Source: Fistulifera solaris (lineage: Eukaryota). Taken from it: a stretch of DNA of 64,000 nt. The DNA is taken from NCBI GenBank assembly GCA_030295235.1, contig AP026155.1:434001-498000 (forward strand), in the 5' to 3' direction. Made by a program: the position numbers and the translations under genes. How positions within the stretch are numbered: the stretch's first letter is position 1; each line of letters starts with the position of its first letter. Shown one piece after another: positions 1 through 30,520 of the stretch. Under the pieces are notes generated by a model, which saw only the letters and a program-made list of their open reading frames with translations, was not told the origin of the DNA and did not search any database.

Positions 1-1329
1 CGTGTTTTCTCACAAAAGATCGGCCTCGGAAGGTGTTTCATGGTGCAGCCTACTCTGGAAAACACGGGTTGCCTCGAGTTCGCGGATCTACCAAAGGATG
101 CGAACGATGCACTCTTGCAAGGCCATGACTTGAAACGCATCATCATGGAAGCGAAACCAGTTCCTCATGAACAGGTTCTATCATTCAGCGATTTGCAAGA
201 CAGCGTGCTGCATGAAATACTGCATCCAGAAAAGTACGAAGGAACCAAGTTACCCAGCTTGCCGAAATTCTCTGCGGTCGTGAAAGGTCTAAGAAGAGGT
301 ACGGATTTCTACTGGTGCTTTCAATATCAGGTGCTTCTGTTTGTTGCTTACAAATCGCCTTTTGTTTTCGTCTTGTTACAGGAGAACTCACCGTCGTGAC
401 AGGACCCACGGGATCCGGGAAAACGACTTTCCTAGGTACGTGTTATCGATTTCTCGCTTTCTTCTCATCGTAAACATTGAGCTTCACTCTCACTATCTGC
501 ATGACAGGTCAAATGTCGCTAGACTTGGCCGAACAAGGCGTGAACGTTCTTTGGGGTAGTTTTGAAGTGCGCAACACAAGACTCATTCACAAGTTGCTGC
601 AACAGTTCGCCCGACAGCCCTTACCGAAAGGCGACCCTTCCTCCGCGGATAAGCTGAAAGATATAGCCAAGCGCTTCGGGGAGCTACCGTTGCACTTTCT
701 CAAGTTCCATGGAGCTTCCGAGCTGGAAGAAGTGCTGGATGCCATGGAATATGCTGTTTACGTCCATGACTGCGAACATATTGGTAAGTTTCAGAGAGTT
801 TCGGTCTTGCCTCCTCTGTCACTTCCCACTCACACAACACGCACTACTACATATTTGGGTAGTCCTGGACAATCTCCAATTCATGATTTCACGCCAAAAC
901 CTCGCAACGCGTAGCGGGAACTCCAATTTCGACAAATTTGATGCCCAAGACATTGCTATTGAGAAGTTTCGCAAATTCGCCACTGAACGAAATGTTCACC
1001 TGTCGTTGGTGGTCCACCCTCGCAAGGAAGACGAGTCGTCCCGTCTCGGCATTTCTTCTATCTACGGCAGCGCGAAAGCGACACAGGAGGCCGACAATGT
1101 ACTGATATTACAAAAAGACAATCAAAAAAAGTATCTCGATGTACGAAAGAATCGCTTTTCCGGTGATTTGGGCGCCACCGAAATCTTTTTCGATCGCGCC
1201 ACGAACCGTTACACGGAAGCACCCACAAATCATGTCGTAACACCCCAAATCATTAACAAAGCTCCTAAAGCATCGATCGAAGATCACTGGGGCAAATATT
1301 TCTCGTCACAACTCACAGAAAACAGATGA
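1..1329 (+). CDS. TWNK: Twinkle-like organellar primase-helicase (SF4/DnaB-type), 3' part, spliced; 5' end outside window
   Basis: End of TOPRIM-like region (PKDAND). Walker A GELTVVTGPTGSGKTT in a short exon ~383-435, then LDNLQFM, VVHPRK, GSAKATQEADNV and KNRFSGDLG. GT-AG introns at ~299-382, ~436-507 and ~784-861. Confidence 0.9.
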
Positions 1330-8723: not shown

Positions 8724-9223
8724 GGTAATAGTGTTGATTGAGCCTTTAGAGTGACTTTGAGAGGAACGCAAACGCAACGTCAAAGATATCCACGCGTTTC
8801 GTCCAGTCTTTTTTTAGGTAACCGATGTTGAGGTAAAAGATCGAACGTTGCGACCGATGCGTCTTTTACTCTATGGGTAAACTGTACGATGGCTCGTCAG
8901 CCTTTCTCGTTTGACCTTTTCCCTTTGTTACGAGTCGAGTCACGAATACATTTGGATGAACTCAGGACTCAGGACTTCTTGGAATTAGACTTTACACGGG
9001 ACTGCCTTTCCCTTTTTCTCTAACAGGTACCGGTACCGGTACCAGTACTGTACGGTCTGTACCTGTACGGTGCTCACTTTAGATTATTTCCCCTTGTCTT
9101 TTGCCCAAACGCGGGACGCCAACGAGGATTTCCTTTTCTCAATCCTTCTCACACAACGAAGACACCTCCTTTGAAATTCGTTCATATTCATTACGCTCCT
9201 TGTCTAGTCTTCATAATCGCCTT

Positions 9224-10236
9224 ATGCTTACACGGCCACTCACAGTCTTCTATCTGCTGGTACCCACTTGCGCTTTTGTGGCAAACCGTTGGCGCATCAG
9301 AGCAACCAACCTTTTTCAGCTAGGGAAACCGTTTCCATTTCCCCAGAATGGAAATTATGGAACGACGATGTACCTTGTGTTCAAATTGTCAACCAAATGC
9401 CAGAAAATCTTCCTAGAGACATGAAGAACAAGTATTACTTGTTGAGACATGGACAATCGACCGCGAATGTCGACGAAATCATCTCATCGGCGAGATCGCT
9501 GGCCTACACCAACAAACACGGCCTCACCTCCAGAGGATACGACCAGGGCTTCGATTCTTCTTCATCACTGATTGAACTACTGAAAGAATCAGCCGAAAAA
9601 GGAGACCGCGTAGTGTTCGTTTCTTCTCCTCTCGCACGGGCGAGGGAAACAGCCAAAGCCTGTCTGGATGGTTTATTCCAAAATGAGACTAATGTGAAGC
9701 AATGGAGAGACGGACTGGGTGTTGCTGTATCGAAGAACATTTACTATCACGATTTGCTAGTTGAAAGAAGCTTTGGAAGGTTAGATGGCGAAGGTAAGTA
9801 CTTCGTTGTTCTTGCGCTCGGTGGTCTCAAATACCTTCCCTCATGTAACCTATTCTGGACGCAAGCAATCTATACTTATGCATACGTCTGGCCGCTCGAT
9901 CGAATGAATGTAACGCACACTGCGTTTGATGTTGAATCGGTTGCAGCTGTTTGTACCCGCATAAAGAGGCTTTTTGAGGATCTCGAAAACGCGGACTTTT
10001 CAAAATCGTTTGACAATACACCGGATTTTAAAGGAGTCGCTCATGTCGTGTGTGTTTCGCACGCGGATGTTTTGCAAATAACTCAGCTCTACGCGGCAGA
10101 AGTGCCGAATGTGGGCGAGTTTTCGTCCTATCGATTTGCGAATGGAGAAATTCGGCGACTGCAACCTGGTGCTGGTCTGGCGTCCTTGCCGGAAGCGAAT
10201 CACTTGCAGAAACCATACAGAGGAACTCGAACATAA
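9224..10236 (+). CDS. Histidine phosphatase / phosphoglycerate mutase family protein, probably plastid-targeted
   Basis: LLRHGQSTAN, SSPLARARETA, LVERSFG and VSHAD motifs. Signal peptide ending TCA-FVA. In-frame intron ~9793-9865; indel near 9315. Confidence 0.85.
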
Positions 10237-10277: not shown

Positions 10278-12790
10278 CTACTGCTCTGGGTATTGCTCAT
10301 CATCCAAATTAAAGTCTGGCAAAATGGGACAGTTCTCCAAATGTAGCGAATGCATCTGGAAGCAACACAAGACCGACTCTGGCAACTCCTCCTCGGACAC
10401 TCCTTCTATTATAAAAGCAAAAGCTATTGAAACCGATTTTGTGTGTCCTCTCACCACGCTCAAAATGCCTTTTGCAATCGAAGAGGCAGTTATTATGACA
10501 TCGACTTCGTATACTCCTTTTCGAGTCAGATCCCTGTCGCGGAAGAAATATTGCAAAGGGATGACCTTTCCTAGCAAAGCGGGCGATTTCCCTGGACCGA
10601 CGGCTGCTTTGACAATCCATGGACCCTCAACAACTACCGGAAGCAGTTTTAGGCGGGCATCGCGGTATTCTTGATCACCGTGACAAAACTTGCCCCAGAC
10701 ACCCTGGAGCTTTTGCGGAAACATATCCAGTGGCGGTATCGAAAAGTATGCAACCAAATTGCCGAAAGGTAGCAAAAATTTACTAGAAACGTGTCCTCGT
10801 CGGCTAATCGTCCACCAAGAACGCTGGGATGGCGTGCGATGTTATGTCTAGGGTTATCCGACATCCACATGTCAACTCCTCGACATGTCAGCGGTGCTGG
10901 CCCCGACAAAACTTTTACCTTATCAGTTAGGTAATTTGCGCCACGTACATGAAAGATATTCGTCTCGGGTTGGCTCCAGCATGAATGACCATCTTTCGAA
11001 GGGAATTTTGGCAGCGGTGACGATAGTCGCTCATCCTCGAAAGAAACGAATGGACGAAGGGGGATTGCTTCTTCGCCGTCAGACTCTTCGCAATCATCAT
11101 CGACGGAGATTTCAAGTCGTGTGACCTCAGTATCTTTAATTGTGACTTGGGCAGTGCCGTCAGCATTGTCTCGCTGATTCTTTACAACGGGAGATTGACG
11201 CGGCAAGGAAGTCACTTCGCTACTTTTCTCCATAACTATCGAACCAAAGCATGCAGCACCAGCCCAGGACAAGATTAGCAGATCGAGGCGTATCGTAACA
11301 GCAGGAATAAATTGCCCAAGAACACAACCTGTCAATGGAAGAACAGCCGTCGCAAGGAATAGCATTGATTGAGAAGGAAACGGAACCAAAGCTTTATCGC
11401 ACCAAAGGTAGCCAAAGGAGAGCACTCGGGCGGCAAACTCATCGACTGCCGATTGCTTTGTAGCACACGAGTGTAACCATTCCTTGACGAAACGATCCGT
11501 AGATATTGTACTATCAAGAGCGATTGTTGTCTTTGTCGTCAAGATTGATAAACCATCATGTCCCTCTAACAGGCGCACGGAGAGTGGAGCAACATTTACT
11601 TGTGAAGGCGACGAGGCCGATGACAAGCAAAGAAATGATTTCAATGCGCTGGTATTGACGGTTTTAGCATCCACAACGATGCTTCGAAGCAGGCTGTCAA
11701 CAACGGAAAGCGTCGCTTTCAATTGTTCCACACGTGGACGAGTCGACAGTCGGGATAACTGACGAATCATTCCTCTGCGCGAATCGTCAATTTGAAAGTC
11801 AATAATATCCACCAATTTTTGGAAATCGTTAGCTGTTCGAAGAATAGACCATTGTTCTGCTATATGTCGTCGCTGCAACAACAGCACTCGAATCTCGTAA
11901 GCAATCTCAAAGCGTAGACTTCGCGCTAGTCGGACCACGCGATACTGCGTTACGCGAGTAATCACAATTTTCGAGGGGTTGCTTTCTGCTTTGGAAGTCC
12001 TCGACGCATGGCGCTTCTGAGTCCCAGTTGAACCGCTCTCTCGTGTCGTCACGTCAATCTGATCAGACTCTGTTTCATTCACATGACTGGTCGTTAATGA
12101 TGAATTCTCAGCCAGAGACTCGATTTTCGTGTCTTCTTCTTCAAATAAGCAAGCTTCAAACACGCGCACCCCTAACATGTCCTCATTCTCCGAAACTGAC
12201 TCATCAATCCTGGGTTTTAGTAGCAAGGGTGATGGTAATTCATCTTTCCACCAAGGGCTTACAATCGGTCCTGACCTAGGAGATAATAAGGTGGTTAAAT
12301 GAGTGACATTCCTAGTAGCCGCCCACTGCAAAGCGACAACCCACATCTGAGCCTCTTCCAGAGTCGCTACTGCACACAAAAAATCACGCTGCTCATGCTG
12401 AACTGGATCTGGCGAACATTGCAACGTTTCTGTATCAGAGGACAGCAGCCTTTGCCCCCGAAACATAAAACCATAAGTACTGGTCGGCAATCCGACGTGC
12501 ATATCACGGAAAGTAGTCGCGTCCAGAATTCGAGCTTGAAATAAAATCAGCGTGTACCTAGGAACGCGACATCCCGAACCATTTTCTTCGTAATACCGAA
12601 CCAAACCATTGTCCCAAACTTCCAAATAGCGCGGCCTCCACACGCGGCGAATTTTTCCTCTCACGTGAGCTCGACCAGAGTGACGAATTTGGGGTTCTGT
12701 CGGAAGCAAGGAATGTCGATCGAGTGAAACGCGCCGTGCTTTGCTGTTGACATGCGAACCGTTCTGCGGTGATCTAGCATTGGATTTCAT
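10278..12790 (-). CDS. PH-domain + DUF1336 (EDR2 C-terminal-like) protein
   Basis: N-terminal PH (WRPRYL...EEAQMWVVAL), central hydrophobic segment, C-terminal FHVRGANYLTDKVK...RLKLLPVVVEGPWIVK...EELPE. Frameshift in A-run ~10775. Confidence 0.82.
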
Positions 12791-13435
12791 TTTTTCGTCG
12801 AACGACGGACAACTGCTTGCAATCTAGCACCGCAAACGTTTCACGAGTTTTGTCGTTTACGAAAGAAAAACAGAAGTGAGAGAAAAGATATGATGCCTTT
12901 TTTCCCCAATCATTTGAACGTTTCGTGCTGTTGATGTGCGCTGTTCACGAAGGTGTTCGTTTGAAATAACTTTTCACATCAAAAACTGCGGGAGACGCCC
13001 TACATAGTGTACAATCGGAGCGACTGTCCTCCACACTTGGCTAAGTAAAAAACAAACTTGTACAGAACACGTTTTTTCAACGGGACACCGATTCAGGTCA
13101 CTGAAGCTGTGGTTCGAGACCACTCACTCTCTCGAGAGAGAGACTGTGAAAACGGGTCTCTACCTGGTACTGGACTAGTTTTTGTTGGCTCTAGCTTCTT
13201 CAGTCAACCATCCATGCAACGCTTCAAAACGACAAAGTACACAATATCTTCATTGTCAACAACGCCAACGTTCGTATCTGAACACTCATAACTCACCAAG
13301 TCGTCGATACTTTTGGTGAACGCACCATACTTGTTCACAACAAAGTCTTCCGAAATGAACAGAAGAATCATCATCGTCCGAGGTCGAACACAATAAATTT
13401 AGCTATGAGTAGGGTTACTTCCTGGGTTAAGAAAG

Positions 13436-16400
13436 CTATCGACAGCTATTTGCCACAAGATACTTGTTGACAAGCTTTGCATGTGGGGTGTTCTTAAAAG
13501 CTTGGATCAGAGTAGTGTCTTCAGCTTCTGTATAGACCAAGGGCCAATATCCACCGCACCCTGACACCACCGAGCGAAAGGAAACGCTCGTGAACCTTTC
13601 CGGCCTACCGACATTTATAAGTTGGGAACATGATAGACGGCTGACAATTCCAAGCGTTTCTTTTAGATTTGGAGGAGGAAGATATAATTCATCTCCAGAA
13701 GATTTGGCGAGGTGCTCCATTTTGGTTATAAGTTCTTCCAAGTCGAATCCTTTGCTCTTAATGCCGGTATTTTTTCTTAAGACAGCTAGGGATATTAGAA
13801 GCAGAGCTTCAAATGGTGCGCACTGAACAATGCTTTTGAACTCTGCGGAGCTCGTAGTTTTTTGAACGGCAGCAACCACATCTTTGACCATGACCACTGG
13901 ATTACCTGTGCTTTTTTTCTTCTCGATCCAAAACAATTTCCGCCGCCGCCTGGCAAATATGGAATGCTTTTCGGATGTCTCCGGATGCCATCGATGTCTT
14001 TTTGGAAGCAAATAAAATGGCATCGTCCTGAAATACTTTGTAAAGCGGCGATGCCTGTGATATTTTTGCCGACAGAATGGCGACCGTCTGCGTCACGTTG
14101 TAGGATTGGAAAGGTAAATGGTTTTTCCCGATACGAGATTGTATGCGATGGTGGAGCCTGTCCAACAAGTCCAGCGTATTGGAAATACCGATAACAACAA
14201 GATTAAAGGGCGCTCCAACGCTTCGTGATGTTGCAGGCCAGTTGAAAAAATCGTAAAGAACCTCCTCCTTCGGCGTAACAAGGTAGTCGATTTCATCTAG
14301 AAGGAGGACAATTACACGTGGTTCTTGCGACTCGGACTTTGCTTTTTCAAAGTATCTCGCAAGCTGCTTGCGGGCTGCGTCGGCGGTGTGCCTTTGCCGT
14401 CCCTGCATATCTGTTCCAGGAACCTAGTGTACGCTTCATTGGGATTCCGCATCTCCATGCCATTCAGCGATACAAAGTCAAACGACGATACCAGTCCTTC
14501 TCTTTGGTCTTGTTTCAAATCACCGATAGCTGCCCGAATGCAGGAGGTCTTTCCCACACCTGGAGGACCCGCTACAAAAAACGAGGCTCTGAAGTTGTCT
14601 TGATTTTGGCCAAGAATAGAGTCCCGTAAAAAAGACTTGATAGCGTTTTGCTCGTATTGTCTCCCAATCAAGGCGGTGCTGCGTTCAAAACCTTCTATCG
14701 ACGCGTCCGTAAGCGATAGCTTCTTTATGACACTTCGAAACGATTCTTTCCAGTCTCCGTTTGCATTGAATGACAACAGCGAGCCTCCTTCATGTTTTGT
14801 AGTGTAAAGAAGATCCAACTCCTTGGAATACTTTGAGTGAATTCTTGCTCTCCTAATCCTACCGTTGAGGTCACTGATTGGTATCAGACTGCGACGACGA
14901 GGGGACCAGAAGCGGCGACAATGAAACTGAATTACTGGCATTCCTAACAAGTACTTGGCCTCTGAAACCTTCGCTGTACTCACCAGCTCAACAGGAGCTA
15001 GTAGATTGCACGGAGAAATCTCATCGTAATGGTCGCTTTCGAGTACTTCTTCTAAGGTGTGCCATGTCGGATCCCTCTCGGTGTCAACTCCCTTTATTTC
15101 GGATGCACGGTACAGCCACCTTATTTCGAAAACGATCACAGATTTCAGTTTATCTTCCGATGGTGATCTCTTGATTATGGCGACAAGCTCAGCGACAGCC
15201 CATTTAATTTCGTCCGCGAGCGGAAAGTTCTTTGACAAATTTGGTTGTTCGATGTTTGTTCCAAACGACGTTCTTCCGGAACCGAAACCATGTCTGACGA
15301 TGAAGACATCACCAAGTCGAAGTTTCCAAACGGAATCATCCGGAACGGAACAAGCCGGGAGACTTGGACAGAAGACACCATAGCGAGGTCGTACACAAGC
15401 CTCCTGGTAAAACTCACAACTAGCGCCGTAATCAACGTAGAACGCTGGGCCTAAAAGCCGGGCGTTGCTTTCTAAGAAACGCACAGAAGACGATTCTGAA
15501 GCAGTTGTCTTCTCGTCGTCATAGGACATACTTTTCAGCTGCATATGCGGTTTTATTGTGCCGTGTACTTTTGAGCTGTCATTCACAACCTTTGTGACTT
15601 CGGCAAAGAGCTCTTTAATCGTCGTTTTGTCGTACTGATTGGATGCTTCAAGGCACCGCTTTAGAAGGTTGCACATTCGTTGGGAGTTACTTTGATGCTT
15701 CTCGACCCGAATATCATAAACTCCTCCATAAACGTTAACCGAAACAGGGAGATAGCTCTGCATCTCCACATTAGACCATAGTGCTTTTCTATCACTTCGC
15801 TGTAATTTTGTGATGCCGGTCATGAAAATACTAATTGGACCAATGAGAGCATCACATTTTACAACTTCCACCTGAATGTTTTCTCCATTGGAATATTCGT
15901 AAACGACGCCTAGTCCACTGCCTTGCACTGAAGGAGTAATTTCTCTTCTAAACAGCCAGCGGATTTCAACCATATATTTCTTCTCAAAATCACTTGAATC
16001 CTTTTCCAACCTTTGAAAAATCGATATGATTTGAGCCGGCCTCCACGGTACAGAATACGGAAAGTACGAACTCGTTTTAATAATACTGCTGCGTACAGCC
16101 ACAATGTCGCCAACACAGCCGACCCAAACCCGATCTTTTCGATCGGCTTCTGGATAGAGAACTTCAGAAAGTGCATACCTGTCCCATGACGGAGTAAGAC
16201 GACAACTGAAAAAGAAACGGCGATCCGGATTTGTGTTTTCCTGAGAGCATAAGCGTGTTTCTGTAAAAACGTCTTCATTGCCGGTTGTCCGCAATCGCGT
16301 AGTGGACGAGTGCGGGCAAGCTTTATTATCCAGAAAAGGAACTTGAAGAGCGCACAGCAACTCCTTCCGTTCCTTTATGATCGGAGATAGCTTTAAAGCT

Positions 16401-18866
16401 TTCAATGTCATTGATTGAAACCACCTCACAGGACTCGCTTCCGCGTTGAAAAGGGGCTGAAATTGACCGTACTGGTGTAAAAACAGGTATTTGCAGCGAA
16501 AATCTACCGCCAAGACATTTTCATTGAATTGACCCTGAACTTTTTGAACGTGATTTGCGATGAATAGGTCAACGGCGCCAAGAATCCTTGAAGCTTTGAC
16601 GTCCCTTTCGAAGACGTCAGTTTGAAAAATTTCGGGGACAGGACCCGTTGTCGGCGGCATCCAGCTGGATGTATTTGATGGCATTTCAGACGGCCGATTG
16701 AACATACACAACTCTACTAACGGTTCATTTGACCCTGGACTCTGTTTTGCAGTTTCCCTGTAGATACAAGTAACTTGACCGATCCGCCAGGGAGCAACAA
16801 ATGGATACCATGGATTCGTTGTCTCACGAGACCTTGGAGAAGGGGCTGTATCCCAAGCAACACAAACAATATCACCTATCTTCACCGTCCATGATTGAGT
16901 GTTAAGAGAACCCTTGTTTGCCGTTGCCCGTGATACATTCCGTCGCGAAACGAGAGGAACAAGAGCAGATGAGAGGTAGTCCACACACCGTCCTTTCGAG
17001 GGTTTCTCTTTGTAGATTATTCGACAAGTGGCATCAGTAAATGCTTCAACATTCATGAGTTCCACTGGCCATCGCGTGGAAACTTCATTTTCGCCTGACT
17101 CGGAATACTTGGTTTTACTGTTAAACAACCCACTCTCTAGATTACCACTTAAACCAAGGCGACGTTTGATAGCATCCAAACATCGCATTTGCAAGACAAG
17201 ATCCTTCCCAGGGTGCGCCTTTTCACACAAAAGCCCACGACTTAGCGGCCCCGCAACTCTTTCTTTAAATGAGGTCCAGTCACAAATGTCGTCCAGCGAA
17301 GTGGAAATCGTCTTGCTATGGTAGAAATGCCGACAGATAAGAGGAACTTGGGGACATTTTGTTTTGTCAACGAAACAATTCAACCATTTCAATGAGGGTT
17401 TAGGATCACTTGTAATATCGATGCTTCCGAGAACTTTCTCGACAAGTATCGTACTCACAAACTCATCAATTTCGATAAGCATCTTGTCTGCATGCTTATA
17501 TTCCAGTAGGCCTTTTCTTTCATCGTCTGATAGGCATAAATCTTTGAGGAGATCTATATCCGTAATGCGGTACAGATAGCGAAATTCAACGAAGACCTGA
17601 CTAGAGGGTGAGTTTTCTTTTCGATAAATAGCTAGAACTTGTGCGGCAGCCCATGGCAAAGTAAATGGCATCCAAGGATTCTTCACTCGTTTCTGAGGAA
17701 TTTCAGCAACAGTGGATACTGCTACAACGTCTCCGACATGAAATACAAACTTTCCAGATAGACGACCTTGAATGGACGAGTCATAATTCTGTTGGCACAA
17801 ATTCAACTCGACCGACTCGAAAAAGTAAAGTTCAGCCACGCTCGTGCCTTTTTTTATCCTTGTGACGCATTGTATATAGCGTTTGTTCTGGTAGAAGCTG
17901 TTCCAATTGAGCAAGTATCTCAGGTTCGGCAGTTGAAGCGGAGGTCGACGTAGTCAGTGCGGCCTCATCGAAAGAAGTATCATCGAGTTCGACGCGCGAT
18001 TTCTGCTTTTTTGAAGGACACCCTGACCTACATAGTACAGGTTTGCGCTTGTTACTGGCTTTTGATGTGAAAGAAGGGTTTGGCTTGAGCTTCTTCTCCA
18101 CATTAGTCGCCATTTTTTGCTTAGGGACTCGTGCGTTGCGTCGATTTCGTGAAGGTGACGAACTTTCCATGAAGTGACCCTCCTTTTGCATTGGGAAAAT
18201 GTGCTCTTTGTACAATCTTTGCAAAGTTCGGTTTGATTGTTGCGGTTTGTCGATGCTCCAAGCTCTTAATAGGGAAAGTGGCAACTCGCCGTCGTCGCGA
18301 ACATAATGATCAAGCCCACGACGCTCGAAAGACTTCATTGGATCGAGGAAACCTAGAGGGCAGTAGAAAATAGTATAAGTGCCAGGAACTTGCATTTCTG
18401 GAGGAATCTGGTTTTGATCTCTGAAAAAATCGGGCCTCTTGAGTTCCACCACAGCTGGTAGCAAGCGTTCGATGGGGAACGTTTCTTCGACTTCCGTCTC
18501 AACTATGCTATGTTTAGGTCTACATAGTTCGTTCATGACGCTCTTTGATTCCTTAGTTGCGTGCTTGTCACAGTATGCACTTGATACAAAAGGGAAGCAT
18601 CTGACTGTGACGTCGTATTTTTTGGTCGAGTCTGTTTTCGTCATAGTCAATTGAATCACCTGTCCTATTATCCATTTCTCACTCTGAAATGGGGCCAACC
18701 TTAGCTTTCCCTTTTTCTCAGATCTATAGGCATAGAAATCTCCAAGAAAAATGCGTTGACAAAAGGTCCCATGGTTGATTTCAAGGCCACCAAATGCAGC
18801 ACATTTGTTTGAGTTAGAGCGGTCTACTTGTTCTGTCAGTGCGACAACCTGAAGTTGGGATACCAT
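13436..18866 (-). CDS. ORC1: ORC1-like AAA+ ATPase (~1800 aa) with about five tandem BAH-like domains
   Basis: LIGRQYE, Walker A GPPGVGKT, LNGMEM, Walker B VLLLDEIDYL, VLYDFFNW, IGISNTLDL, SGDIRKAFHIC and a winged-helix-like tail. Four ORFs join through single-base indels in homopolymers at ~17855, ~14393 and ~13915. Confidence 0.85.
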
Positions 18867-19421
18867 ACTTCAAACACAAAAACGCCGCAGTGGATATGGT
18901 TGGTTGTGTGTGTAAAGAAGACTGTTGTGAATCGTTTATTTCAATAGAATGCAAGGCTATAAGTTTTCGCGCTTCATTGTCATTCTTTCACGTCATTGTT
19001 GTTGCGATCGCATCGCATTCGAAATTCGAGCTGGAACTGCGGTTTCCGGTACCGCAGATGGTGCAGCGACCAGCGAGCAGACCGGATCACCGCCCGACCC
19101 GCGCGCGCGAAATCATCACGCGCGGACGGATACGAAAAAAGACACTCCAGCATTTTGGGTCATTCTAATCCTGCACTGCAATAAGTCGTCAAAAGTCATC
19201 GCCGAACTCTTCTAGTACGGAGTCTGGTCGGAGTATTTCGCTGCTTGCCCCACAGTGCACTGCGAAAGCCCATGGATTTTAGATTTGGGCCTGTTGGCAC
19301 TACATGGATACGGAGTATGAATTTTCGATTTATGTTCTGAGATTTCCGCCTTGGCGTTTTCGCCCGCCAAACGCCAAAAGGTCTTCTTTCATTTCCAGAG
19401 CTAAAGAATCGAACAAATGCC

Positions 19422-22400
19422 TTGCAATTGATTGTCAAAGAATTTGCACGCAACAAGCTTCATCCGTCGCAACAATTTCATACTGTTACTATTACCCAGG
19501 CAGGAATTATTAAGTCCTTCAACATGCATCGAAGCTTGCAGCAGGATTGTAAAGAACGAACGTCTATCACAACATCTTTCAATAATGATGATCGGATTCC
19601 TACCTACACCGGCATAATGTTCGAAATATATCCTAACATGGATCTCGAGTTATTAACAATGGAGCTTGATATTCGAATCAATGAAGCAGGTGGACAACCG
19701 GACCTCTGGGTTGAAGTTTATACGCTAGTGGGGAGTTACGAGCTTTTCGAAGCCTACACCGCGGACAGATGGACCTTGGTGACCGAAACAAACGCGGTTT
19801 TGCTACCCGGTGGCCAAGCAGCTATTATACCAACCAGCGTTTTCAACAAGGTTGAGATGAAAGCAGGAGAGCGGAGATCATTCTACGTTACTTTTCGAAA
19901 ATCGGTAAGCTTATTGATCCTCAGCCGTGTTTCTGTTTAGCTTTGTGTCGTCTCACCTCCGGTTTCTCGCTTGCTAATTCAATGCGCAGTACATAGATTT
20001 CGTCGCCGACGCCCTTCAAAAAATCTGGAGAGGTGCAGATGACAACCCCTGAACTCGATATCTCAGTTGGAGTAGGCTTCAACGAATACAAGTTTCCCGG
20101 CGATTTCGACCGAACACTGGATCCGCAGTTCGCCGGAGTACTTCATTTGCGACGATCCGGAGAATGCAGCCTCTTTGTCAAAAACACGGAACTGACTTTC
20201 AGTTACCTTGTGGAAGCCGAGCCTACACCCGAAATTTCGTCTCAGCTAGTCGAAGCAGTACAAGAAGCGATTAAGTCTCTCATGACAACTGATTCAATTT
20301 TGCTCTCGTACCAAGAACAATTTGGTCTGGTTCAACTAATGGAGCCTATTGGGGCGATGGATAACAACAGCGGTAAGTAATTCGGCGTGCTCAATGTATA
20401 TCAGGGATGAAGCACTAACTTTTGAATAGGAGGGTGTCCTGATCAGTGGGCCACTTGTCCAGACAGATACTTTAACATCAACGTTTCCTTCGAGCACAAC
20501 GATAAATTAGATGAAGGAGAACTCAGATATCAATTTTATCGCCACTACGGAATGGTCGACGGTGCTGTGAAAGCGAAAATCACAGATCACAGTTCTCTTT
20601 ACGTCGGACTCGCAAGTGTATCAGCTGATATAACTATGTCCCTGAGTGGCACGCCTGAAAACAGTATAATGGACAGCGTGCAAGCGGATTATTTCAGAGA
20701 GGCTGTGGTATCGTTTCTTCAGGCCCACATCGATCCCAAGGCAAGCATATTTAGTCTCGCTATTGATAGCCAATCGAGGTCCAATAAGCTCCGTCATGCA
20801 CGAGCGTTGCAGGAAAGTGATTTGATGGTAACAGGGAAGCTCTTCGGAGGCCAGGGCCTATATTATTCTGCTGAAGATTTTCGCTCCGAAGTAGAAGATA
20901 CATTTAGGAGTGGACAAGAGATTTTCATAGAAAGCTTAATTACGAATGGCTTACGACCAAGTGATGTCAGCGAGAACGGCGGAATTGAGATATTCAACGG
21001 GATCACCAGCATCGGTGGTTTTGTTAGGGTGGATGAGACACCACAACAATCTGCGCCTGGTATGCAAGGTCCGGTGACGCAGTCTGCTAATTTTGGCTTA
21101 ATAGTTGGTGTAGTCTTGGCTGTCGCTTTCACTTGCCTGGTGGTATGGCTTGTCAGTCATTTTTGGCGTTTATACCAGCAAAGAGAAGACAAAGAGCGCA
21201 TGAGGGAGTACCGGGAAGAGCGAGAGAGAATTGACAGAATGAACTGGCAGAAGCAAATTGACGACGAATATGACGAGGTTTTTGGAGGCGGTAATGAAAA
21301 CAAAGAAGCCGATAATGAAGCGCCACTTGACGCGCGACGCTACTTGGCGTCCATTACAGATACATATGATGATGTGAATTCCTGTGATATAGAGAACGTT
21401 GGCGCACTGAAACGATCAAGCTCTTTCCACGACCCGCGCATAACATCAAAGCGGATGCTCCCAGCCCGATCAAAATCCTGTCAAGGAATTGATGGCGGTT
21501 CATCTCAATACGAAACGACAAGAACCGGTGGATTATACAAAGGCGTCGTAGAGCCAAAGAAAGGACAAAAACCACAACTACCGAAAGCGACACTAGATAA
21601 GTTCCTGGAAGATAAAGCAGGGGCTTTTTTACGGCAAGGTAATTCGAGGAGTGTCTCTTCTTCAGCAATCAGTATTGGTTCTTATTCCGCAGCCAAACCA
21701 CCAACTCGATCACGTTCTGGGCCGGTACTTGGGTATTCTGGCTCTTCATTAGGGCCTCCCGCAACACGAAATGGACCGGTGCCTTCCAGATTGCCACCTG
21801 GAAGGTCGGCATCAGGTCCCAATCTTTTTCAACGTCAAGCGCCTCGTGCAGGGCCACCGGTACGACCACCGCCTGGTCGTGCAAGGTCATATAACTCCCT
21901 TCCGCCAGGAGTCCGCCCTCCTCCTCCACCGCCTCCTCCTGGTTTTGATCCTCGGTCCCAGGGAGCACCTTCACGAATACCTCCTGGTCGATCTCACTCC
22001 CTCAATCAAAATCGATTTCCTCCTGCTGCTCATGCGCAACCTCGTGTTTTCACGTCCGGTCCCCCAAAAGGCTTACCCTCAAAAATATTAGGCTCTCAAC
22101 CGTCACCATGTCGCAATGATCCTAAGCCATTGCGTTTAGGTTCTGAAATTACTGCCAATGTGACACAACAAAGACCAGAGAACCCGCCGATGGCATCGCA
22201 TCGTCTCCAACACACGCCCCCAGTCATGATGCACAAGCAGGTTGCAACGGCAACTTTAGTTCAGCAGATAGACAATCAGGCAGTACCAATGCCTCTGAGC
22301 AGGCATCAAAACACAATTGCAAATGAAAGCGTCACATTATCTAGGAATGACCCGGAAAACTCGTGCGAAGTAGCCCCACAAGCCGCAAGAGACTTGCCTC

Positions 22401-22684
22401 CCCGATCCGAGACGCCACCAGTCGAGACGTACGTGAAACCTGCTAGTTCACCTGCCACTTCAACATCATCTATGTCTCTGGAAGAGGAAACAGAGCACAA
22501 AAAGAACAAAAAGAAAAAGGAAAAGAAAGAGAAGAAGAGCAAAAAGGAAAAGAAAGAAAAGAAGGAGAAGAAAGCGAAGAAGGAAAAGAAGAAATCAAAA
22601 GAAACCAAATCAAACGACGGACAAGGACAGCATGATATGGCCATTAGAAACAATTTGCAGACTGAAGCAAAAGATACTAGATGA
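19422..22684 (+). CDS. Type I membrane protein with RXL motifs, Pro-rich cytoplasmic region and Lys/Glu-rich tail; true start uncertain
   Basis: Exons separated by GT-AG introns (~19905-19989, ~20373-20429). TM segment FGLIVGVVLAVAFTCLVVWLV; poly-Pro; KKEKK repeats. Confidence 0.7.
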
Positions 22685-25315: not shown

Positions 25316-27214
25316 AGGGCCATTTCTAACCTGAAGTTTCGTACCTTGCAAGGGCTGGGGACTCCGTTTGACTGTTTCTCTCGATAGCTCCGTGTTGGTA
25401 CTATTTACTAAAGGTGTGACATTCGTGCGACACAGATGTGACAACGTCCTTGAACCAGCAGTCACGGATAAATATTCCGTGTGCGCGCAGCACACAATCG
25501 ATAGCAGCCGAACATGCCAATTCAAACATCTTTTCTAATATATACCAGGTACTCCAAAGATTTTATTCGACATCATCCACTCTACTCATCAGAAAGCTCA
25601 GCAATCAATTGGTCGAAGAGAGCCGTTTCTTGATCTGCCGTGGATCTGTGTGTTTTGCTGAGTTTCATAAACTTCTCGATTTCGGCATGTTCGACATATG
25701 CATCGCCAAAATACTGGTAAGTCTGCGCATACCTGCGTGTCCTGTTGGTGAATTTGCGACAGTGATCGATGCTTATTTGTCGTAGAGCTTTATCCACTGA
25801 CCCTTGGAAGTCGGTTTTCTTATCTGGAAGAGAAATTTTGCGTCGGTAAAATCGCTTTGCCAATCCCCAGGCGTACTCGATGCCAAGGCCAGCAAGTTCA
25901 CAGTGGTACTTGGGCGAAAAGAGGACCGTGATCTGGCGCTCTGGAGTCGATAGTTGATTACAAAGGTCTTCAAGGTGAGTTATTTCATTCGAAAAGTCAT
26001 TTTGCCAGAATCACTGACAGCACAAATTTGTTCACGTCATCTTTTCTCGCCTCTAGAACTTCCCCATTGGCATCTTTCCAACTGTCCGGAATTTTTGCAT
26101 AATATGTTTCGCCTTCCTCGACATGGCCACGTTCCCAGGCAGCGTGCTTCATCCCTTTTGCTTTGTCCATCCAGCCCTCTACGATCTCGGATACTTCGTT
26201 ATAAAGGACGATGTTCGCTTCTTGGGCCTTTCGCTGGATGTCTTTTTTGTGTCTGTTGACCGCTTTTGAATTCCAAGTTCTTTGCAAAGTTCATCTTTTG
26301 TTTTGGCACTTTCTTCTTCTCGCCTGATGCTGTCGTTTTTTTGGCTCGCGGGACTGGTTGCATTTGCGCTTTCGAGTCAGGGCTCAGTCGGAATGCCAGC
26401 GCTCGTTTCTCTTGTGGTAAAGCGCAAATTGTTTGTGTCTAGGTAGATCTGGTACCACGTGGCTGCTGAGAACGTGAATATTGGCTTTTTGTTGTTCATA
26501 AAGTAGAAGAAAGAATGTTTGAATCGTTGCGCGTCACCAATGACTTTCGGCATCCGATAGCAACCGGTTTGATTTGCCTCGCTGTAGGTTTCAATCAAAC
26601 TAAACTTCATACTCTTACTCAGTGCGAACCGAAGATCATCAACATTAATATTCATTGCTCTGGCAACTGCAGCTTCACTGAACCAACGATCTGATAAACT
26701 TTTGGATTTTTTCAGCTGACCGAAAGCTGACTCAAAAGCGGATAGCTCAACAATGGTAGCTCCCCGCGCCTTCATTTCGTTATATTGTATTCTTCTATAA
26801 TAGTGTAACGTAGTTGTACAAATTTGAACGGTCAACGAGACCTACAACAGAAATTATACGTCTTCGAAATGATGGAATGAGGTTTTTGTCATGGTGAAAA
26901 TGTTTTTCGTCGTGATGTTATCGCGGAAAGTGGCGATAAATTCTTAGGATAAGGTTGAAGGATATTCTAATGTATCACGCAAAAGAGTAGGAACGTAGAA
27001 TATGTACCAGTTGAACGACAAGCAGTGAAATGGCGTCCCCAGCCCTTATTCGTATTTTCGCATTTTGCGTTCGTATCCAAGGTTTTACGGAGAAAGTGAC
27101 AGACGATAACTTCTCTATTTTCCATTTCTCTCCCGTTTGGGCAAAGTGGGCAAGAGTGGGAGCACGCGAAATACGAAAATACGAAATACGAAACTTCCGG
27201 TTAGAAATGGCCCT
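25316..27214 (-). mobile_element. Internally deleted TIR DNA transposon with IS630/Tc1-mariner-like transposase remnant
   Basis: 28-bp TIR: AGGGCCATTTCTAACCTGAAGTTTCGTA (25316-25343) vs reverse complement of 27187-27214, 1 mismatch. A second inner inverted repeat (25351-25374 vs ~27023-27046). Broken minus-strand ORFs read EGWMDKAKGMKHAAWERG...DFSNEITHLE...SPKYHCELAGLGIEYAWGLAKRFYRR...KTHR. Confidence 0.85.
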
Positions 27215-28285
27215 GAGTTATTTTTTTTGATGTGAGGCAATCAGCAATGCGTGACTGTCCACACTCCACACCCGGATCCAGTCAGAACTTAACCCTAATC
27301 CTCAATGTAGGCAAAAACCAATGACCAGCTTGTCTAAAACAGGTGCAAAACAGTACCGGTGCTGGTACCCGGACAATTTTTATAAAAATTAAATCCACCA
27401 TCATGATCCAAAGCCGTATTCCTTTCTTTTCAAACATCGAACGCTCACGAAAACATCGGATATCATAACAGTCCAGACCCGCAGAGTTGTGCAGACTTGC
27501 CGTATCTTGCTAAGATGACCGCATAAACTTCTACAGTAAAAATACAGGCGAATCAAACCCGGCGCCGCACGTGCTGGCGTTGTTGCTAGAATATTGTTAT
27601 TGTATTGATAGCAAAATTAAAAAAATAGCAAAAAAGGTCTATAGAAGAAAATCATGATAATATTCTGCCTTAAAAAAATTAGGAATAAATATAAATTCAA
27701 TGAATGTAAAAATTTAAAAAAATTATAATGAGTTAAACTCATCTAAAAAATGAAAAAGTAACTCTCATATAAATGGCTTAATAAACGTTATATCCGCCTT
27801 TCGTTGCTTCGACCAGTAAGCGTACTTTAACGATATCCAAGAGACGGTGCAACAGTTAGTCCGGTGGAGTTTTGTTACAAAGATACTGATCGTAAAACGA
27901 GTTACTCATCAATCGAAATATAAGAAGACAAGAAATCCAAAAAGGACATCAATTTTTCGTAGGGAACATCAATTGGTGTTGTTAACAACAGAGGCTCGTT
28001 TTTCTGAGATCTTCTCGAAATCAACATACAACAGGCACAAGGACTAACCCAAGAGAATAGGCCATATGTCGCGATGAATACTCAAATTGCATCATGCACT
28101 TATCAAACAATTCGAGTTTTGAAATCTCGCTTTCAACCATAAAATCTATTATCAAGGTCCGCCAACAAATCATTTCTCATGACATTTATCTAGTCCCTTA
28201 CTATTTTTGGTTGAAAAGGCCCGATCGTAAAAAAACTTTTTGTTGTTAACAAGAAGAATAACACTAACCTTTTAAATGTGGAACA

Positions 28286-28677
28286 AGCTTCAGCCAGACA
28301 GAATACTTGAGAAAAAATCATTATTTCAAGTTTGGCCTATTTTGCCGAAGATCCTATTCCCCCCAAAGCTTGTTTTCGCGATTTTCGTGTGATCATACGG
28401 CTTTAATTTAGAGCGAAGACTGTAAAGAGCCTTTTCATCGATTCTGTGCAATGAAGCGGCTAAAATAAGCTTCAGCCAGACAGAAACCTTGAGAAAAAAT
28501 CATTATTTCAAGTTTCGCCTACTGTTATGCAGCATAGCACAAATGATTTTGCCGAAGATCCTATTCCCCCCAAAACTTGTTTTCGCGATTTTCGTGTGAT
28601 CATACGGCTTTAATTTAGAGCTAAGACTGTAAAGAGCCTTTTCATCGATTCTCTGCAATGAAGCGGCTAAAATAAGC
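28286..28677. repeat. Tandem duplication of ~185 bp; second copy has an extra ~24-bp segment
   Basis: AAGCTTCAGCCAGACAGAA...GAAGCGGCTAAAATAAGC at ~28286-28470 and again at ~28467-28677 with few substitutions. Confidence 0.93.
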
Positions 28678-29221
28678 ATCAATGCATTGACCTTAAACAC
28701 TTAAAAACATCAGTGTAAATACTATTTGTGCAATCGGTGTTAGTAATTCATATCACAAATATTTTACTTTTTTTCTTTTATATTTGCTTGTGTCATTTTG
28801 TTCAACCAGTCTTTTCGCCCATCTGCAATGTTTTTCTCCACTTGGTAACAGAGAAAATATATTCTAGGGTGTTTGTTTGCGATTATGAAAATTCGACGTA
28901 CGAAGCAGCAGCCGATATCAGCAAGCACTTAATTCCTGAAGTCTACCTCAAAAATAAAATAGAAAATAAACTCGAGCAATGAGCAAGCGGTAAGGCGAGA
29001 GTAAGCTTTTTCCAGCTTCTGCTTTTTCTGGAGCCCGTTAACAACTATCTCACTTTGTTTCAGAAATGATTCAGCAAGATCAATTCATATTTCTTGAAGT
29101 CGATAAACGACTAAGCTTCATTCGAAAATGTCACTTAATCCGGCCACGTTCCAACCAAGATTAACGAGATTACATAGGCGAGTCTTGATCGGGGCTTCAA
29201 ATTAGGGCTGATAACATATTG

Positions 29222-29550
29222 GCTAAATGCGCTTGATATATCAAGGTATCTATACAATAGGGGCACACCAAAGAAATGAGTTTATTGATTGAATCGCTTT
29301 CGATAATATAATCCGTAGGACACCATGGCAGAATACGCGTCCTGCAAACTTGCAGCTGCAATTCTTACGATGGTGACGACCAAAACTGAAAGCGAAGATG
29401 TATCCTATGCTTCCATCGTATAGGAACAGTCAGCATTAAAGTCGGACTAGCTTGTTCTGTTTTCACAAGACTCATGGTTAAGGCAATGAATAACAAGAAG
29501 CCCTGTGGCTTGTTGTTGAAACGAATAGGAGGCGTTAGGCTGCCGCAAAA
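29222..29550 (-). pseudogene. Decayed inverted copy of the 5' flank and first ~85 codons of the DUF962 gene (source ~22988-23325)
   Basis: Reverse complement matches source blocks such as CGCCTCCTATTCGTTTCAACAA, GAACAAGCTAGTCCGACTTT, GTTTTGGTCGTCACCATCGTA and CATTTCTTTGGTGTGCCC, with frameshifting indels. Confidence 0.92.
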
Positions 29551-29862
29551 TTTTTATCCTGCTTCGGTGGAATCCAGGAGAAGGAGCAATACGGAGATTT
29601 CGCTCGTATCGGGAAACGGGCTAAGGACTCGCTTTCTACTATTTCTAGCTTGGTTTTATTTGTATCTGTGAGAGAATGATTTCGGACAAATATGAAAAGC
29701 AGTTTGAATTCTAAAAATCCTCATATATATTTTATTCCTAATGTTTTAATCGTCAGAATCTAATCTTGACATTCGACTGAATTTTCCACTTTTCATTCAC
29801 ATATATTTCAGTCTGACACTTCAATGAGTAAGCTTTGGTTCTAACTCCCTAGCCTTAGTGCG

Positions 29863-30520
29863 CTAGTTGAGGGCCAGTCCCGAGCCCGTTTCCCAATGAG
29901 GGGGATTCCGTTTTGGCATTCCTTCTCTTGGATTTCGCAGAAGCATACTAACTGACCTGACCAGGGAAAGACTCATGCGCGCCCGGATGAAGCCACAGAT
30001 CTCGGAGTATGGCTTGTTCCACTTCCGCTGAAGTTTTCTTGCAAGCTGTCTCGATGCTGAAATAGCCTGTTGTCCCATCATTCCGTCAATGGAAAAGACC
30101 AGGGGAGTGAAGTCTCGTCTGCGTTCGTGGCAAGGGGGTCCGTACATGCTACGCTTTTCACGCTCTTGAGAAGCCAGAACCTTAATCGGGTCACGGTTTC
30201 TGTATGACGGTGCGTCGGTATCAGTAACTCGGACATCGAAAATGGTCGTTCGTCTCTCATTCCAAAAGCCATAGGCCGAAACATCTCCTCGAAGCTCTTG
30301 AACCTGTGTACTGTTGTTGCTGTTGCCAAATGTGTGAATGGTAGGCTCATCACGAACAGATTTGGGTCCAAAGGCTTGCGTGCAAAGAGACATGAATTCC
30401 GCTTTTCAGATCGTCGTGTCTCTGGATAACAAGTCCACCGTTTTTGCATTGTTGTGCATGTTCGACTGTAAACGGTTTATTGCATCCATCACACTTCTTG
30501 GGGAGATCTAAAAATTGCAT
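29863..30520 (-). mobile_element. 5'-truncated CRE-like non-LTR retrotransposon (zinc knuckle + restriction-like endonuclease)
   Basis: LPKKCDGCNKPFTVEHAQQCKNGGLVIQRHDD[indel]...RGDV..GFW...IFDVRVTDTDAPSY...EREKRSMY...FTPLVFSIDG. This CCHC + PD-(D/E)xK layout is typical of RLE-clade elements; no RT retained. Confidence 0.85.

Follow-up and report, generated by a model that had tools for sequence, protein, structure and literature searches.

The window analyzed here is a stretch of 64,000 nucleotides from the diatom Fistulifera solaris (contig AP026155.1, positions 434,001 to 498,000), and all positions given below are counted within it. Its minus strand holds, at 13436-18866, what we read from the sequence as a single-exon gene for ORC1, the largest origin recognition complex (ORC) subunit, with a putative array of five BAH domains encoded ahead of the AAA+ ATPase module (Table 1). 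In the assembly, the locus appears as four minus-strand open reading frames (ORFs) located at 17832-18869 (345 amino acids), 14312-17953 (1213 amino acids), 13902-14423 (173 amino acids) and 13436-14092 (218 amino acids), which read as a single protein when three frame breaks are bridged. The frame from 18866 to 13439 covers 5428 nucleotides, and a net change of -1 upon repair leaves 5427 nucleotides, or 1809 amino acids. An earlier interpretation of the same DNA from its letters alone (hereafter the sequence-only reading) had proposed one ORC1-like protein of about 1800 amino acids, and the repaired frame agrees with this proposal.

Table 1. Predicted features of the ORC1 locus in the window, with the evidence or a remark for each
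Feature	Position	Strand	Evidence or remark
Whole ORC1 gene	13436..18866	-	ATG 18866-18864, stop 13438-13436; no introns; three 1-nt frame breaks
BAH unit U0, most N-terminal	18192..18824, beta core ~18321-18803	-	AlphaFold2 model, Foldseek and hhalign
K/R/S-rich linker U0-UA	17819..18191	-	sequence; holds frame break 1
BAH unit UA and helical extension	17156..17818, core ~17321-17815	-	model and VIA-align
BAH unit UB	16361..16963, core ~16454-17020	-	VIA-align and sub-cut-off Pfam BAH
BAH unit UC	15584..16201, core ~15716-16222	-	hhalign, ESM-Atlas neighbors, two-BAH alignments
BAH unit UD, adjoining AAA+ module	14750..15397	-	Pfam BAH
ORC1 AAA+ ATPase core and lid	13905..14671	-	Walker A GPPGVGKT, Walker B LLLDEID; Pfam
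C-terminal region, presumed winged helix	13439..13904	-	conserved 40-50% in eight distant orthologues
Frame break 1	17849-17855	-	A7 run; A6 in other sources; within U0-UA linker
Frame break 2	14393-14395	-	A3 run; A4 in other sources
Frame break 3	13912-13918	-	A7 run; A6 in other sources

The assigned start codon at 18866 is the first ATG past an in-frame stop. The window protein thus begins with MVSQLQVV, matching the MASQLQVV start of its full-length relative from JGI (P0007, 1815 amino acids, 81% identity). The ORF translations are collinear with P0007 and with an NCBI entry named 'origin recognition complex subunit 1 [Fistulifera solaris]' (P0005, 1699 amino acids). The latter is 100% identical to the window over a single stretch of 1023 amino acids, as found by an exhaustive HMMER search with 1023 window residues. 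The locus itself is therefore already known, as the gene is present in public databases and annotated as ORC1. P0007, P0009, P0010 and P0030 are full-length collinear relatives, and each is encoded by a single ORF.

A second F. solaris protein, P0006, is 83% identical to P0005, and the two represent homoeologues that both carry the array. The public model for P0005 begins at an internal methionine, residue 111 of the 1809-amino-acid frame, which lies inside U0, and the model for P0006 also begins at an internal methionine that is further downstream. Judged from these starts, the first BAH unit is missing in part or almost entirely from the two models. A public sequencing run designated X1 yields two sets of contigs over parts of the ORC1 gene (13400-18900), at 99+% and at 90-95% identity (27, 2 and 7 pieces by identity band). 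This pattern fits two homoeologous ORC1 copies, corresponding to P0005 and P0006, in an allodiploid genome.

We compared the window DNA at the three frame breaks with the proteins P0005, P0006 and P0007, and with contigs from two sequencing runs. Run X1 holds 0.91 of the sampled words of the stretch and comprises either DNA or RNA, with RNA being only a guess, and X2, a wetland metagenome, contains few of these words and covers parts only, mostly at 90-99% identity. Two further runs, X3 and X4, gave no contigs, and none of the runs matching the gene is listed as RNA. The sequence-only reading had suspected three homopolymer indels, and it is exactly at 17849, 14392 and 13912/13914 that X1 contigs depart from the window, in each case by a single base. 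At break 1, the sole covering X1 contig omits one base at 17849 (depth 20.6/20.6). At break 2, a T is inserted behind 14392 in both X1 (13.4/13.4) and X2 (11.2/11.2). At break 3, both covering X1 contigs are one base shorter, with the base omitted at either 13912 (19.4/35.1) or 13914 (15.7/35.1), and X2 likewise omits one base (11.2/11.2). P0005 remains in frame through all three breaks, and so do its homoeologue P0006 and two relatives, P0007 and P0008. P0010 is likewise collinear, with no break in its ORF. No joints were seen in the X1 contigs over the ORC1 gene. Because the breaks are absent from the X1 contigs and from the public protein, they are most likely one-nucleotide homopolymer length errors of the assembly, or at most strain differences. 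This conclusion is tempered by the fact that X1 may derive from the same sample as that behind P0005, and so these two lines of evidence are perhaps not independent.

A fourth one-nucleotide length difference between the window and an X1 contig is located at 18878, which is 12 nucleotides upstream of the ORC1 ATG. Its presence suggests that homopolymer indels are general in this assembly, and therefore other genes in the window may also be artificially broken.

The repeated character of the region N-terminal to the AAA+ module is evident from a short motif, [VIL]GD[VIF][VYFI], which occurs exactly five times in P0007 (residues 41, 377, 663, 919 and 1187). The corresponding copies in the window start at 18746, 17737, 16879, 16114 and 15316. 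The sequence-only reading had noted five recurrences of a longer motif series (GD..PF/Y..PW..AQV..VE.RW.YR..E..D..LG), and this series is seen in an alignment of the five window units, with every copy of the short motif falling 11-16 nucleotides inside the unit start that had been given. For the comparison of units with each other, five unit alignments were taken from an alignment of 11 orthologues and subjected to pairwise analysis by hhalign. All ten pairs match, with probabilities of 94.9-99.6% and E values from 4.6e-8 to 1.9e-24. Pairs among UA, UB, UC and UD have probabilities of 99.1-99.6% (E 6.6e-19 to 1.9e-24), including UC against the other three (99.3-99.6%, E 3e-20 to 1.9e-24), and for U0 against these four the values are 94.9-96.8% (E 4.6e-8 to 2.4e-10). 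Self-comparisons of P0007 and P0010 by BLASTP produced no off-diagonal alignments at E<=10. The repeat units are too diverged for BLASTP and are visible only to profiles.

Each of these domains consists of a beta core of about 130-190 residues plus a helical extension, and poorly conserved linkers lie between them. The linker joining U0 to UA is basic and probably disordered, and it is possibly a candidate nuclear localization region.

Structure prediction provides evidence of a BAH fold. An AlphaFold2 model of U0 made from a 21-row alignment (predicted local distance difference test score, pLDDT, 89.9; predicted template modeling score, pTM, 0.89) gave 82 matches by Foldseek to PDB entries at E<=0.001. 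All rows among the matches listed are BAH-containing proteins, and these include DNMT1, the mouse ORC1 BAH domain (4dow_B; E 6.8e-7, TMt 0.66), BAHCC1, TNRC18, MET1, Sir3 and yeast Orc1. A model of the 745-residue stretch from UA to UC (31 rows, pLDDT 77.4) gave 85 Foldseek matches at E<=0.001, led by DNMT1. A search of this model that did not use Foldseek gave a similar result: BAH-containing proteins fill its first 19 rows (17 chains at Z>=8), followed by a PWWP domain at Z 5.4. Comparisons by VIA-align place UA (residues 1-221 of the model) close to plant SHL/EBS BAH domains (Z 10.6-10.8), the PtSHL BAH domain among them (5znr_A; Z 10.8, root mean square deviation 2.7, 122 residues aligned at 1..177), and to the yeast Orc1 BAH domain (6om3_L; Z 10.1, 149 residues aligned at 1..205). 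UB superposes on the mouse ORC1 BAH domain (4dov_A; Z 11.7, root mean square deviation 3.0, 146 residues aligned at 257..457), on the first BAH domain (BAH1) of PBRM1 (Z 11.6) and on the BAH-PHD region of Arabidopsis ORC1b (Z 11.3). Thus, according to the predicted structures, U0, UA and UB have the BAH fold.

The evidence for UC and UD is of a different kind. UC has the same strand order in the model as UA and UB, the two-BAH chains of DNMT1, MET1 and DIM2 align over UB and UC together (221-285 residues), and 25 of the 30 ESM-Atlas feature neighbors of UC are members of the BAH set (highest score 0.93, with 193 features in common). Along with its profile homology to the other units, this constitutes indirect structural evidence that UC is a BAH domain. 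For the 1213-amino-acid piece P0002, Pfam BAH (PF01426) scores 40 bits against a cut-off of 30.8 over two stretches, the best of which (934-1024) is UD. When scanned alone, UD matches at E 2.7e-4 (21.2 bits) and UB at E 3.9e-4 (20.8 bits), and U0, UA and UC scanned singly have no Pfam BAH match. UD therefore appears to be a BAH domain from a weak Pfam match together with its homology to the other units.

A number of these observations count against the assignment of all five units. Only two of the five window units match Pfam BAH when scanned singly, and both scores are under the gathering cut-off of 30.8 bits. A profile of the five window units has zero matches among PDB sequences at E<=1, and UD alone has zero at E<=10. 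UC has no clean single-domain structural match, as neither VIA search placed a single-BAH chain on UC alone and only weak Tudor-like rows were recovered there (Z 3.8-4.7). However, each chain reports its best placement only, and therefore the lack of a separate row for UC is no argument against it. On balance, we regard ORC1 of F. solaris as carrying five BAH domains, given the fold in three and the strong homology of the other two to those three. The five BAH-like domains claimed by the sequence-only reading are consequently borne out as a predicted fold for U0, UA and UB, and in a weaker manner for the remainder, with faint Pfam matches for UD (and UB) and with profile homology plus indirect structure for UC.

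The module that follows the fifth unit had been described by the sequence-only reading as being of the ORC1/CDC6 type, and it indeed carries Walker A and Walker B motifs and a Cdc6/ORC-like lid (PF22606; E 4.9e-10, 39.6 bits, cut-off 27), in addition to Pfam matches to AAA, AAA_16 and AAA_22. To discriminate between the two families, which that reading had proposed to do with a tree, we compared phmmer scores of P0005 against PDB sequences. ORC1 scores higher than CDC6 in the human pair (137.9 bits, E 2.1e-39 versus 121.6 bits, E 1.7e-34), in the fly pair (E 2.2e-33 versus 7.2e-20) and in the yeast pair (E 3.5e-26 versus 1e-8). By this measure, the AAA+ part is closer to ORC1 than to CDC6 in all three species pairs, although the human margin is small (138 versus 122 bits) and these are pairwise scores, both of which caution against excessive reliance on this comparison. 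A BAH unit, UD, immediately precedes the AAA+ module on its N-terminal side, which is how ORC1 is arranged. Supplementary Table 1 of PMC7058166 lists cdc6 and orc1 as distinct genes in Phaeodactylum and Thalassiosira.

We also considered whether the protein is CDC6, and rejected this identity because BAH domains are present and because CDC6 scores below ORC1 in each of the human, fly and yeast pairs. Two proteins of Nitzschia inconspicua (P0185 and P0186; 2136-2139 amino acids, with six BAH-like matches) carry the NCBI label 'cell division control protein 6'. In architecture, these look like ORC1, and the higher scores of the Fistulifera protein with ORC1 than with CDC6 agree with this view.

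The C-terminal region is presumed to be a winged helix by analogy with the architecture of other ORC1 proteins. The C-terminal piece P0004 has no Pfam match, the winged helix (Cdc6_C) included, and the alignment with human ORC1 stops at residue 1642 of the 1699 in P0005.

When eight distant five-unit orthologues are compared with P0007, the five cores are 18-40% identical, the four linkers 7-33% and the AAA+ part 45-53%. A linker is less conserved than a core in most of these comparisons, and the U0-UA linker is the lowest-conserved region of all (9-19% identity). Because the cores exceed the linkers in identity, all five cores appear to be under selection.

Some BAH domains read methylated lysines by means of an aromatic cage. 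According to a passage in PMC10425938, the cage of PBRM1 BAH1 is formed by H976/W997/Y999 and is 'similar to' that of ZMET2, and the second BAH domain (BAH2) of PBRM1 has R/I/I at the cage positions and binds more weakly. We took the equivalent positions to be the tryptophan in the P/K-W motif and, within the R-W-x-Y-R motif, its W-x-Y, because searches of PDB sequences gave no residue-level alignment to a solved BAH domain. At these positions, UD has W/W/Y in the window and keeps this triad among its relatives (n=172 units: W 142, W 168, Y 155). UA has W/Y/Y (n=62: W 60, W 54, Y 37), and UC has W/W/F (n=67: W 65, W 39, with the third position varying). For UB, the window residues are W/M/N (n=70: W 64; second position R 27, W 24; third position L 18, Y 17, F 10). 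U0 has W/C/P (n=15: W 10, W 10, with no residue predominating at the third position).

UD, the unit adjoining the AAA+ module, is read as the conserved, ancestral ORC1 BAH domain, and it is the likeliest candidate for a methyl-lysine reader because its W..W-x-Y triad is kept at the cage positions. UA is probably also a reader, and U0 and UB in F. solaris probably are not. Three facts restrain any broader claim of lysine reading. The cage positions are assigned from motifs and PBRM1 numbering and not from a structural alignment, the third position of UC is Y in only 10 of its 67 units, and aromatics occupy all three positions in UA, UC and UD only, leaving two of the five units (U0 and UB) devoid of the triad. 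Multivalent chromatin reading by the array is thus weakened as a proposal by the presence of cage aromatics in only three of the five window units.

Arrays of this type are not peculiar to F. solaris. An exhaustive search recovered 166 proteins at E<=0.001, 53 of them at E<=1e-30. A profile search with alignment A1, whose words were drawn from the variable N-terminus, found five proteins only, of which one was new. Hidden Markov models (HMMs) built for each of the five units and for the AAA+ part were scanned over 246 proteins, and 86 of these look complete as defined by an initial M and an AAA+ score of at least 300 bits; this set is redundant, as cluster members are included. The number of units of at least 25 bits per complete-looking protein is 0 in 2 proteins, 1 in 13, 2 in 15, 3 in 19, 4 in 10 and 5 in 27. 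In all 84 of the complete-looking relatives that have a unit, the one immediately preceding the AAA+ module is of the UD type. Among the 27 with five units, the order is U0-UA-UB-UC-UD in 23 and UA-UA-UB-UC-UD in the other four.

The sequence-only reading had called for a count of units across diatom orthologues, and by this count, made with unit HMM matches at E<=0.01, 15 named diatom species out of the 16 sampled have multi-BAH ORC1 proteins with two to six units. Five units are found in Mayamaea pseudoterrestris and Epithemia clementina, and six each in Nitzschia inconspicua (one of only 17-18 bits), Cylindrotheca fusiformis (one weak) and a Bacillariaceae metagenome-assembled genome (one of only 9 bits). 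Protein P0040 has seven. Fragilaria crotonensis, Pseudo-nitzschia australis and Ditylum brightwellii have four units. Three are present in a cluster with Thalassiosira pseudonana records, in Conticribra weissflogii, in a record with a CCRYP prefix that we infer to be from Cyclotella cryptica, in Dactyliosolen fragilissimus and in Skeletonema menzelii. Two were detected in Skeletonema potamos, and the 764-amino-acid protein of Proboscia alata has a single unit. The counts for centric diatoms are lower bounds because the HMMs were trained on pennate sequences, and some gene models in this survey are truncated. The same layout with a varying number of units thus appears, from sequence, to occur in other diatoms.

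Routine domain annotation misses most of these units. Pfam lists BAH for 8 of 11 of these diatom proteins and sees none to two units per protein, and its best stretch is sometimes the first unit and not the last (Fragilaria 44-150; the CCRYP record 114-225). At E<=1e-4, there is no Pfam BAH match for the T. pseudonana-cluster protein, Dactyliosolen or Proboscia, and the precomputed Pfam list of P0005 contains no BAH.

One protein in the survey, P0222 (1432 amino acids), falls in a 90%-identity cluster with Thalassiosira pseudonana ORC1 (the cluster of P0198), and carries the EukProt label Alexandrium tamarense, a dinoflagellate. It is probably a diatom contamination of that data set.

The F. 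solaris protein can be compared with several known systems. The ORC1 proteins of yeast, animals and plants have one BAH domain, through which the connection of chromatin state to origin licensing is best understood. Its known uses include the reading of H4K20me2 in metazoans, nucleosome binding in yeast and a BAH-PHD cassette in plants. F. solaris ORC1 resembles these proteins in that its AAA+ and lid portions are most similar to ORC1, a BAH domain lies directly upstream of the AAA+ module, and individual units superpose on ORC1 BAH structures (UB and U0 on mouse ORC1, UB on Arabidopsis ORC1b and UA on yeast Orc1). It differs from the animal, fungal and plant proteins, with their one N-terminal BAH domain (with an inserted PHD in plants), by having five such domains, no PHD and about twice the length, and its four distal units are without a counterpart in those ORC1 proteins. 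Sir3 also has a BAH domain followed by an ORC1-type AAA+ fold, and its BAH domain plus helical subdomain aligns to UA (Z 9.2-9.7 over 1..206-210). However, Sir3 is a fungal-specific silencing factor with a single BAH domain and a degenerate ATPase, whereas Walker A and B are intact in F. solaris.

The tandem pair of BAH domains in the DNA methyltransferases DNMT1, MET1 and DIM2 provides the top Foldseek matches (3pt9, 3.1e-7 for U0; 3pta_A, 1.8e-12 for UA-UC), and BAH1 and BAH2 together align across two neighboring F. solaris units. In those enzymes, both domains pack on a methyltransferase domain, which is a different catalytic partner from that in F. solaris ORC1. The root mean square deviations of 11-15 A indicate that the orientation of neighboring units in the F. 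solaris model is not that of DNMT1. PBRM1/Polybromo and yeast Rsc2 carry one or two BAH domains in subunits of remodelers, and the two BAH domains of PBRM1 occur with bromodomains and with no initiator-family ATPase, unlike F. solaris ORC1. The combination of an intact and a degenerate cage in the PBRM1 pair, as given in the passage of PMC10425938 on these domains, is similar to the mixture of triads in the F. solaris array.

Taken together, the best explanation overall is that the locus is a single ORC1 gene encoding five BAH domains and an AAA+ module, in which the array serves as a multivalent tether between ORC and chromatin. We consider this explanation probable, with the chromatin portion being inferred. 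The C-terminal module would act as in other ORC1 proteins by binding ATP and DNA within ORC and by participating with CDC6 in MCM loading. Five BAH domains on flexible linkers could make several weak contacts with nucleosomes or histone tails simultaneously, and thereby tether ORC to chromatin. Such contacts might provide avidity and perhaps combinatorial specificity, and would permit origin licensing independent of DNA sequence. For U0 and UB, the likelier targets would be nucleosome surfaces, unmodified tails or partner proteins, in the manner of the cage-less BAH domains of Sir3 and yeast Orc1. Multivalent chromatin reading by the array is a prediction from its architecture. The tether model fits findings from Phaeodactylum, in which ORC2 and ORC4 sites mapped by chromatin immunoprecipitation sequencing lack a shared motif and for which the authors propose sequence-independent binding (10.1101/2024.07.07.602421). 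This was the sole study mapping origins in a diatom that our searches recovered, and the terms ORC1 and BAH occur zero times each in its text.

The array might instead serve a non-replicative chromatin role as a scaffold for heterochromatin or silencing, like the yeast Orc1 BAH domain and its paralogue Sir3, with the choice of origins being independent of the distal units. UA does align well with the BAH domains of yeast Orc1 and Sir3, and the match (Z 9.2-10.1 over 1..205-210) extends to the helical subdomain. The aromatic triad is missing from U0 and UB, as it is from nucleosome-surface binders, and the sequence-only reading had likewise raised silencing. However, P0005 and P0006 both carry the array and no array-free ORC1 copy of F. 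solaris was found in our searches, which implies that the replicative ORC1 itself bears the array, and UD keeps a reader-type triad. We therefore view an exclusively non-replicative role as unlikely, although silencing and replicative roles are not exclusive and nothing in the data separates them. Another idea is that the distal BAH units are protein-protein scaffolds in a remodeled ORC, perhaps replacing diatom ORC subunits that are hard to find, and are not histone readers. In its favor, the yeast Orc1 BAH domain binds Sir1 via its helical subdomain (as stated by the titles of PDB entries 1zhi and 1zbx), and Supplementary Table 1 of PMC7058166 gives zero for orc3 and orc5 in Phaeodactylum and for orc4 and orc5 in Thalassiosira pseudonana. 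Yet the missing subunits may be detection failures, as a passage of PMC7058166 says for domains. Moreover, the best structural matches of UA and UB include reader BAH domains bound to histone peptides, and the aromatic triads of UA and UD are conserved. We judge a pure scaffold to be quite improbable.

Two further alternatives concern the gene itself and not its function. Three frameshifts within 5.4 kb could indicate that the window copy is a true pseudogene, a decaying homoeologue whose loss the second copy might permit the cell to tolerate. The nature of the breaks makes such decay very hard to credit: all three are one-nucleotide length changes in A runs, the X1 contigs of 99+% identity have in-frame lengths, P0005 is in frame with 100% identity over its 1023 aligned amino acids, and there are no premature stops and no substitution load. 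The fourth indel, upstream of the ATG, fits general homopolymer noise. Nor is there much reason to think that the N-terminal ORFs are separate genes for BAH proteins located upstream of a short ORC1 gene, despite their appearance as distinct ORFs in the window and the internal methionines at which the P0005 and P0006 models begin. The ORF boundaries coincide with homopolymer indels and not with a stop followed by a start, and orthologues are single ORFs of 1815-2145 amino acids. In addition, the transcriptome-derived proteins P0064 and P0199 from other diatoms, both denoted 'type:complete', join several units to the AAA+ module. Separate genes are accordingly the least credible of the alternatives, to the point of being nearly negligible.

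It is possible to speculate further about the history of the array. Perhaps it grew stepwise during the diatom radiation, from one unit in Proboscia, to about three in Thalassiosirales and Dactyliosolen, four in Ditylum and Fragilaria, five in naviculoid raphid pennates, and up to six or seven in Bacillariaceae. An array of this size might span more than one nucleosome, and its cage-bearing and cage-less units might form a combinatorial nucleosome code that defines origins, such that ORC reads chromatin instead of DNA sequence. This arrangement may also compensate for a reduced ORC. As a complete scenario, these ideas are tentative and rather doubtful.

The ORFs neighboring ORC1 look unrelated to it. 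Downstream, an ORF at 10652-12823 on the minus strand (724 amino acids) matches Pfam EDR2_C at profile positions 1-77 of 213 only, with residues 616-684 near the C-terminus. It appears that the domain is truncated where the ORF stops, which could be due to an intron or to another assembly indel. A histidine-phosphatase ORF is located at 9217-10233 on the plus strand. Upstream of ORC1, an ORF at 20426-22681 on the plus strand (752 amino acids) has a long proline-rich region and a K/E-rich tail, and its sole Pfam match is a weak, sub-threshold one to SR-25 (24.1 bits versus 40). Elsewhere in the window, 26001-30000 has a GC fraction of 0.39-0.41, compared to 0.45-0.48 in the remainder.

Both ORC1 and the BAH domain are familiar, and a three-to-seven-fold BAH array on ORC1 is not. 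The sequence-only reading did not know of this architecture, and we likewise found no description of a multi-BAH ORC1, or of a BAH array on diatom ORC1, in the literature searched, from which subscription journals were outside coverage. The relevant passage of PMC7058166 states only that BAH is 'patchily distributed' in ORC1, and Supplementary Fig. 1 of that paper, on ORC1 domain architectures, may show more than one Pfam BAH in some diatom. The BAH passages of 10.1101/2021.11.30.470311 do not concern ORC1, and a passage in that work states that most genes with reader domains (92%) carry a single one. Because Pfam under-calls the units, surveys that score the ORC1 BAH domain as 'patchy', as does the passage of PMC7058166, may undercount it. 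For annotation, it is also relevant that the public F. solaris ORC1 models begin inside or past the first unit.

Diatom ORC1 proteins with three to seven BAH domains offer a natural experiment in multivalent origin targeting. Two models open to transformation, Phaeodactylum and Thalassiosira, belong to the lineage that carries the array, and autonomously replicating elements are of importance to episomal vectors in diatoms. The BAH array is a concrete and testable candidate for a targeting module that may influence origin choice in diatoms.

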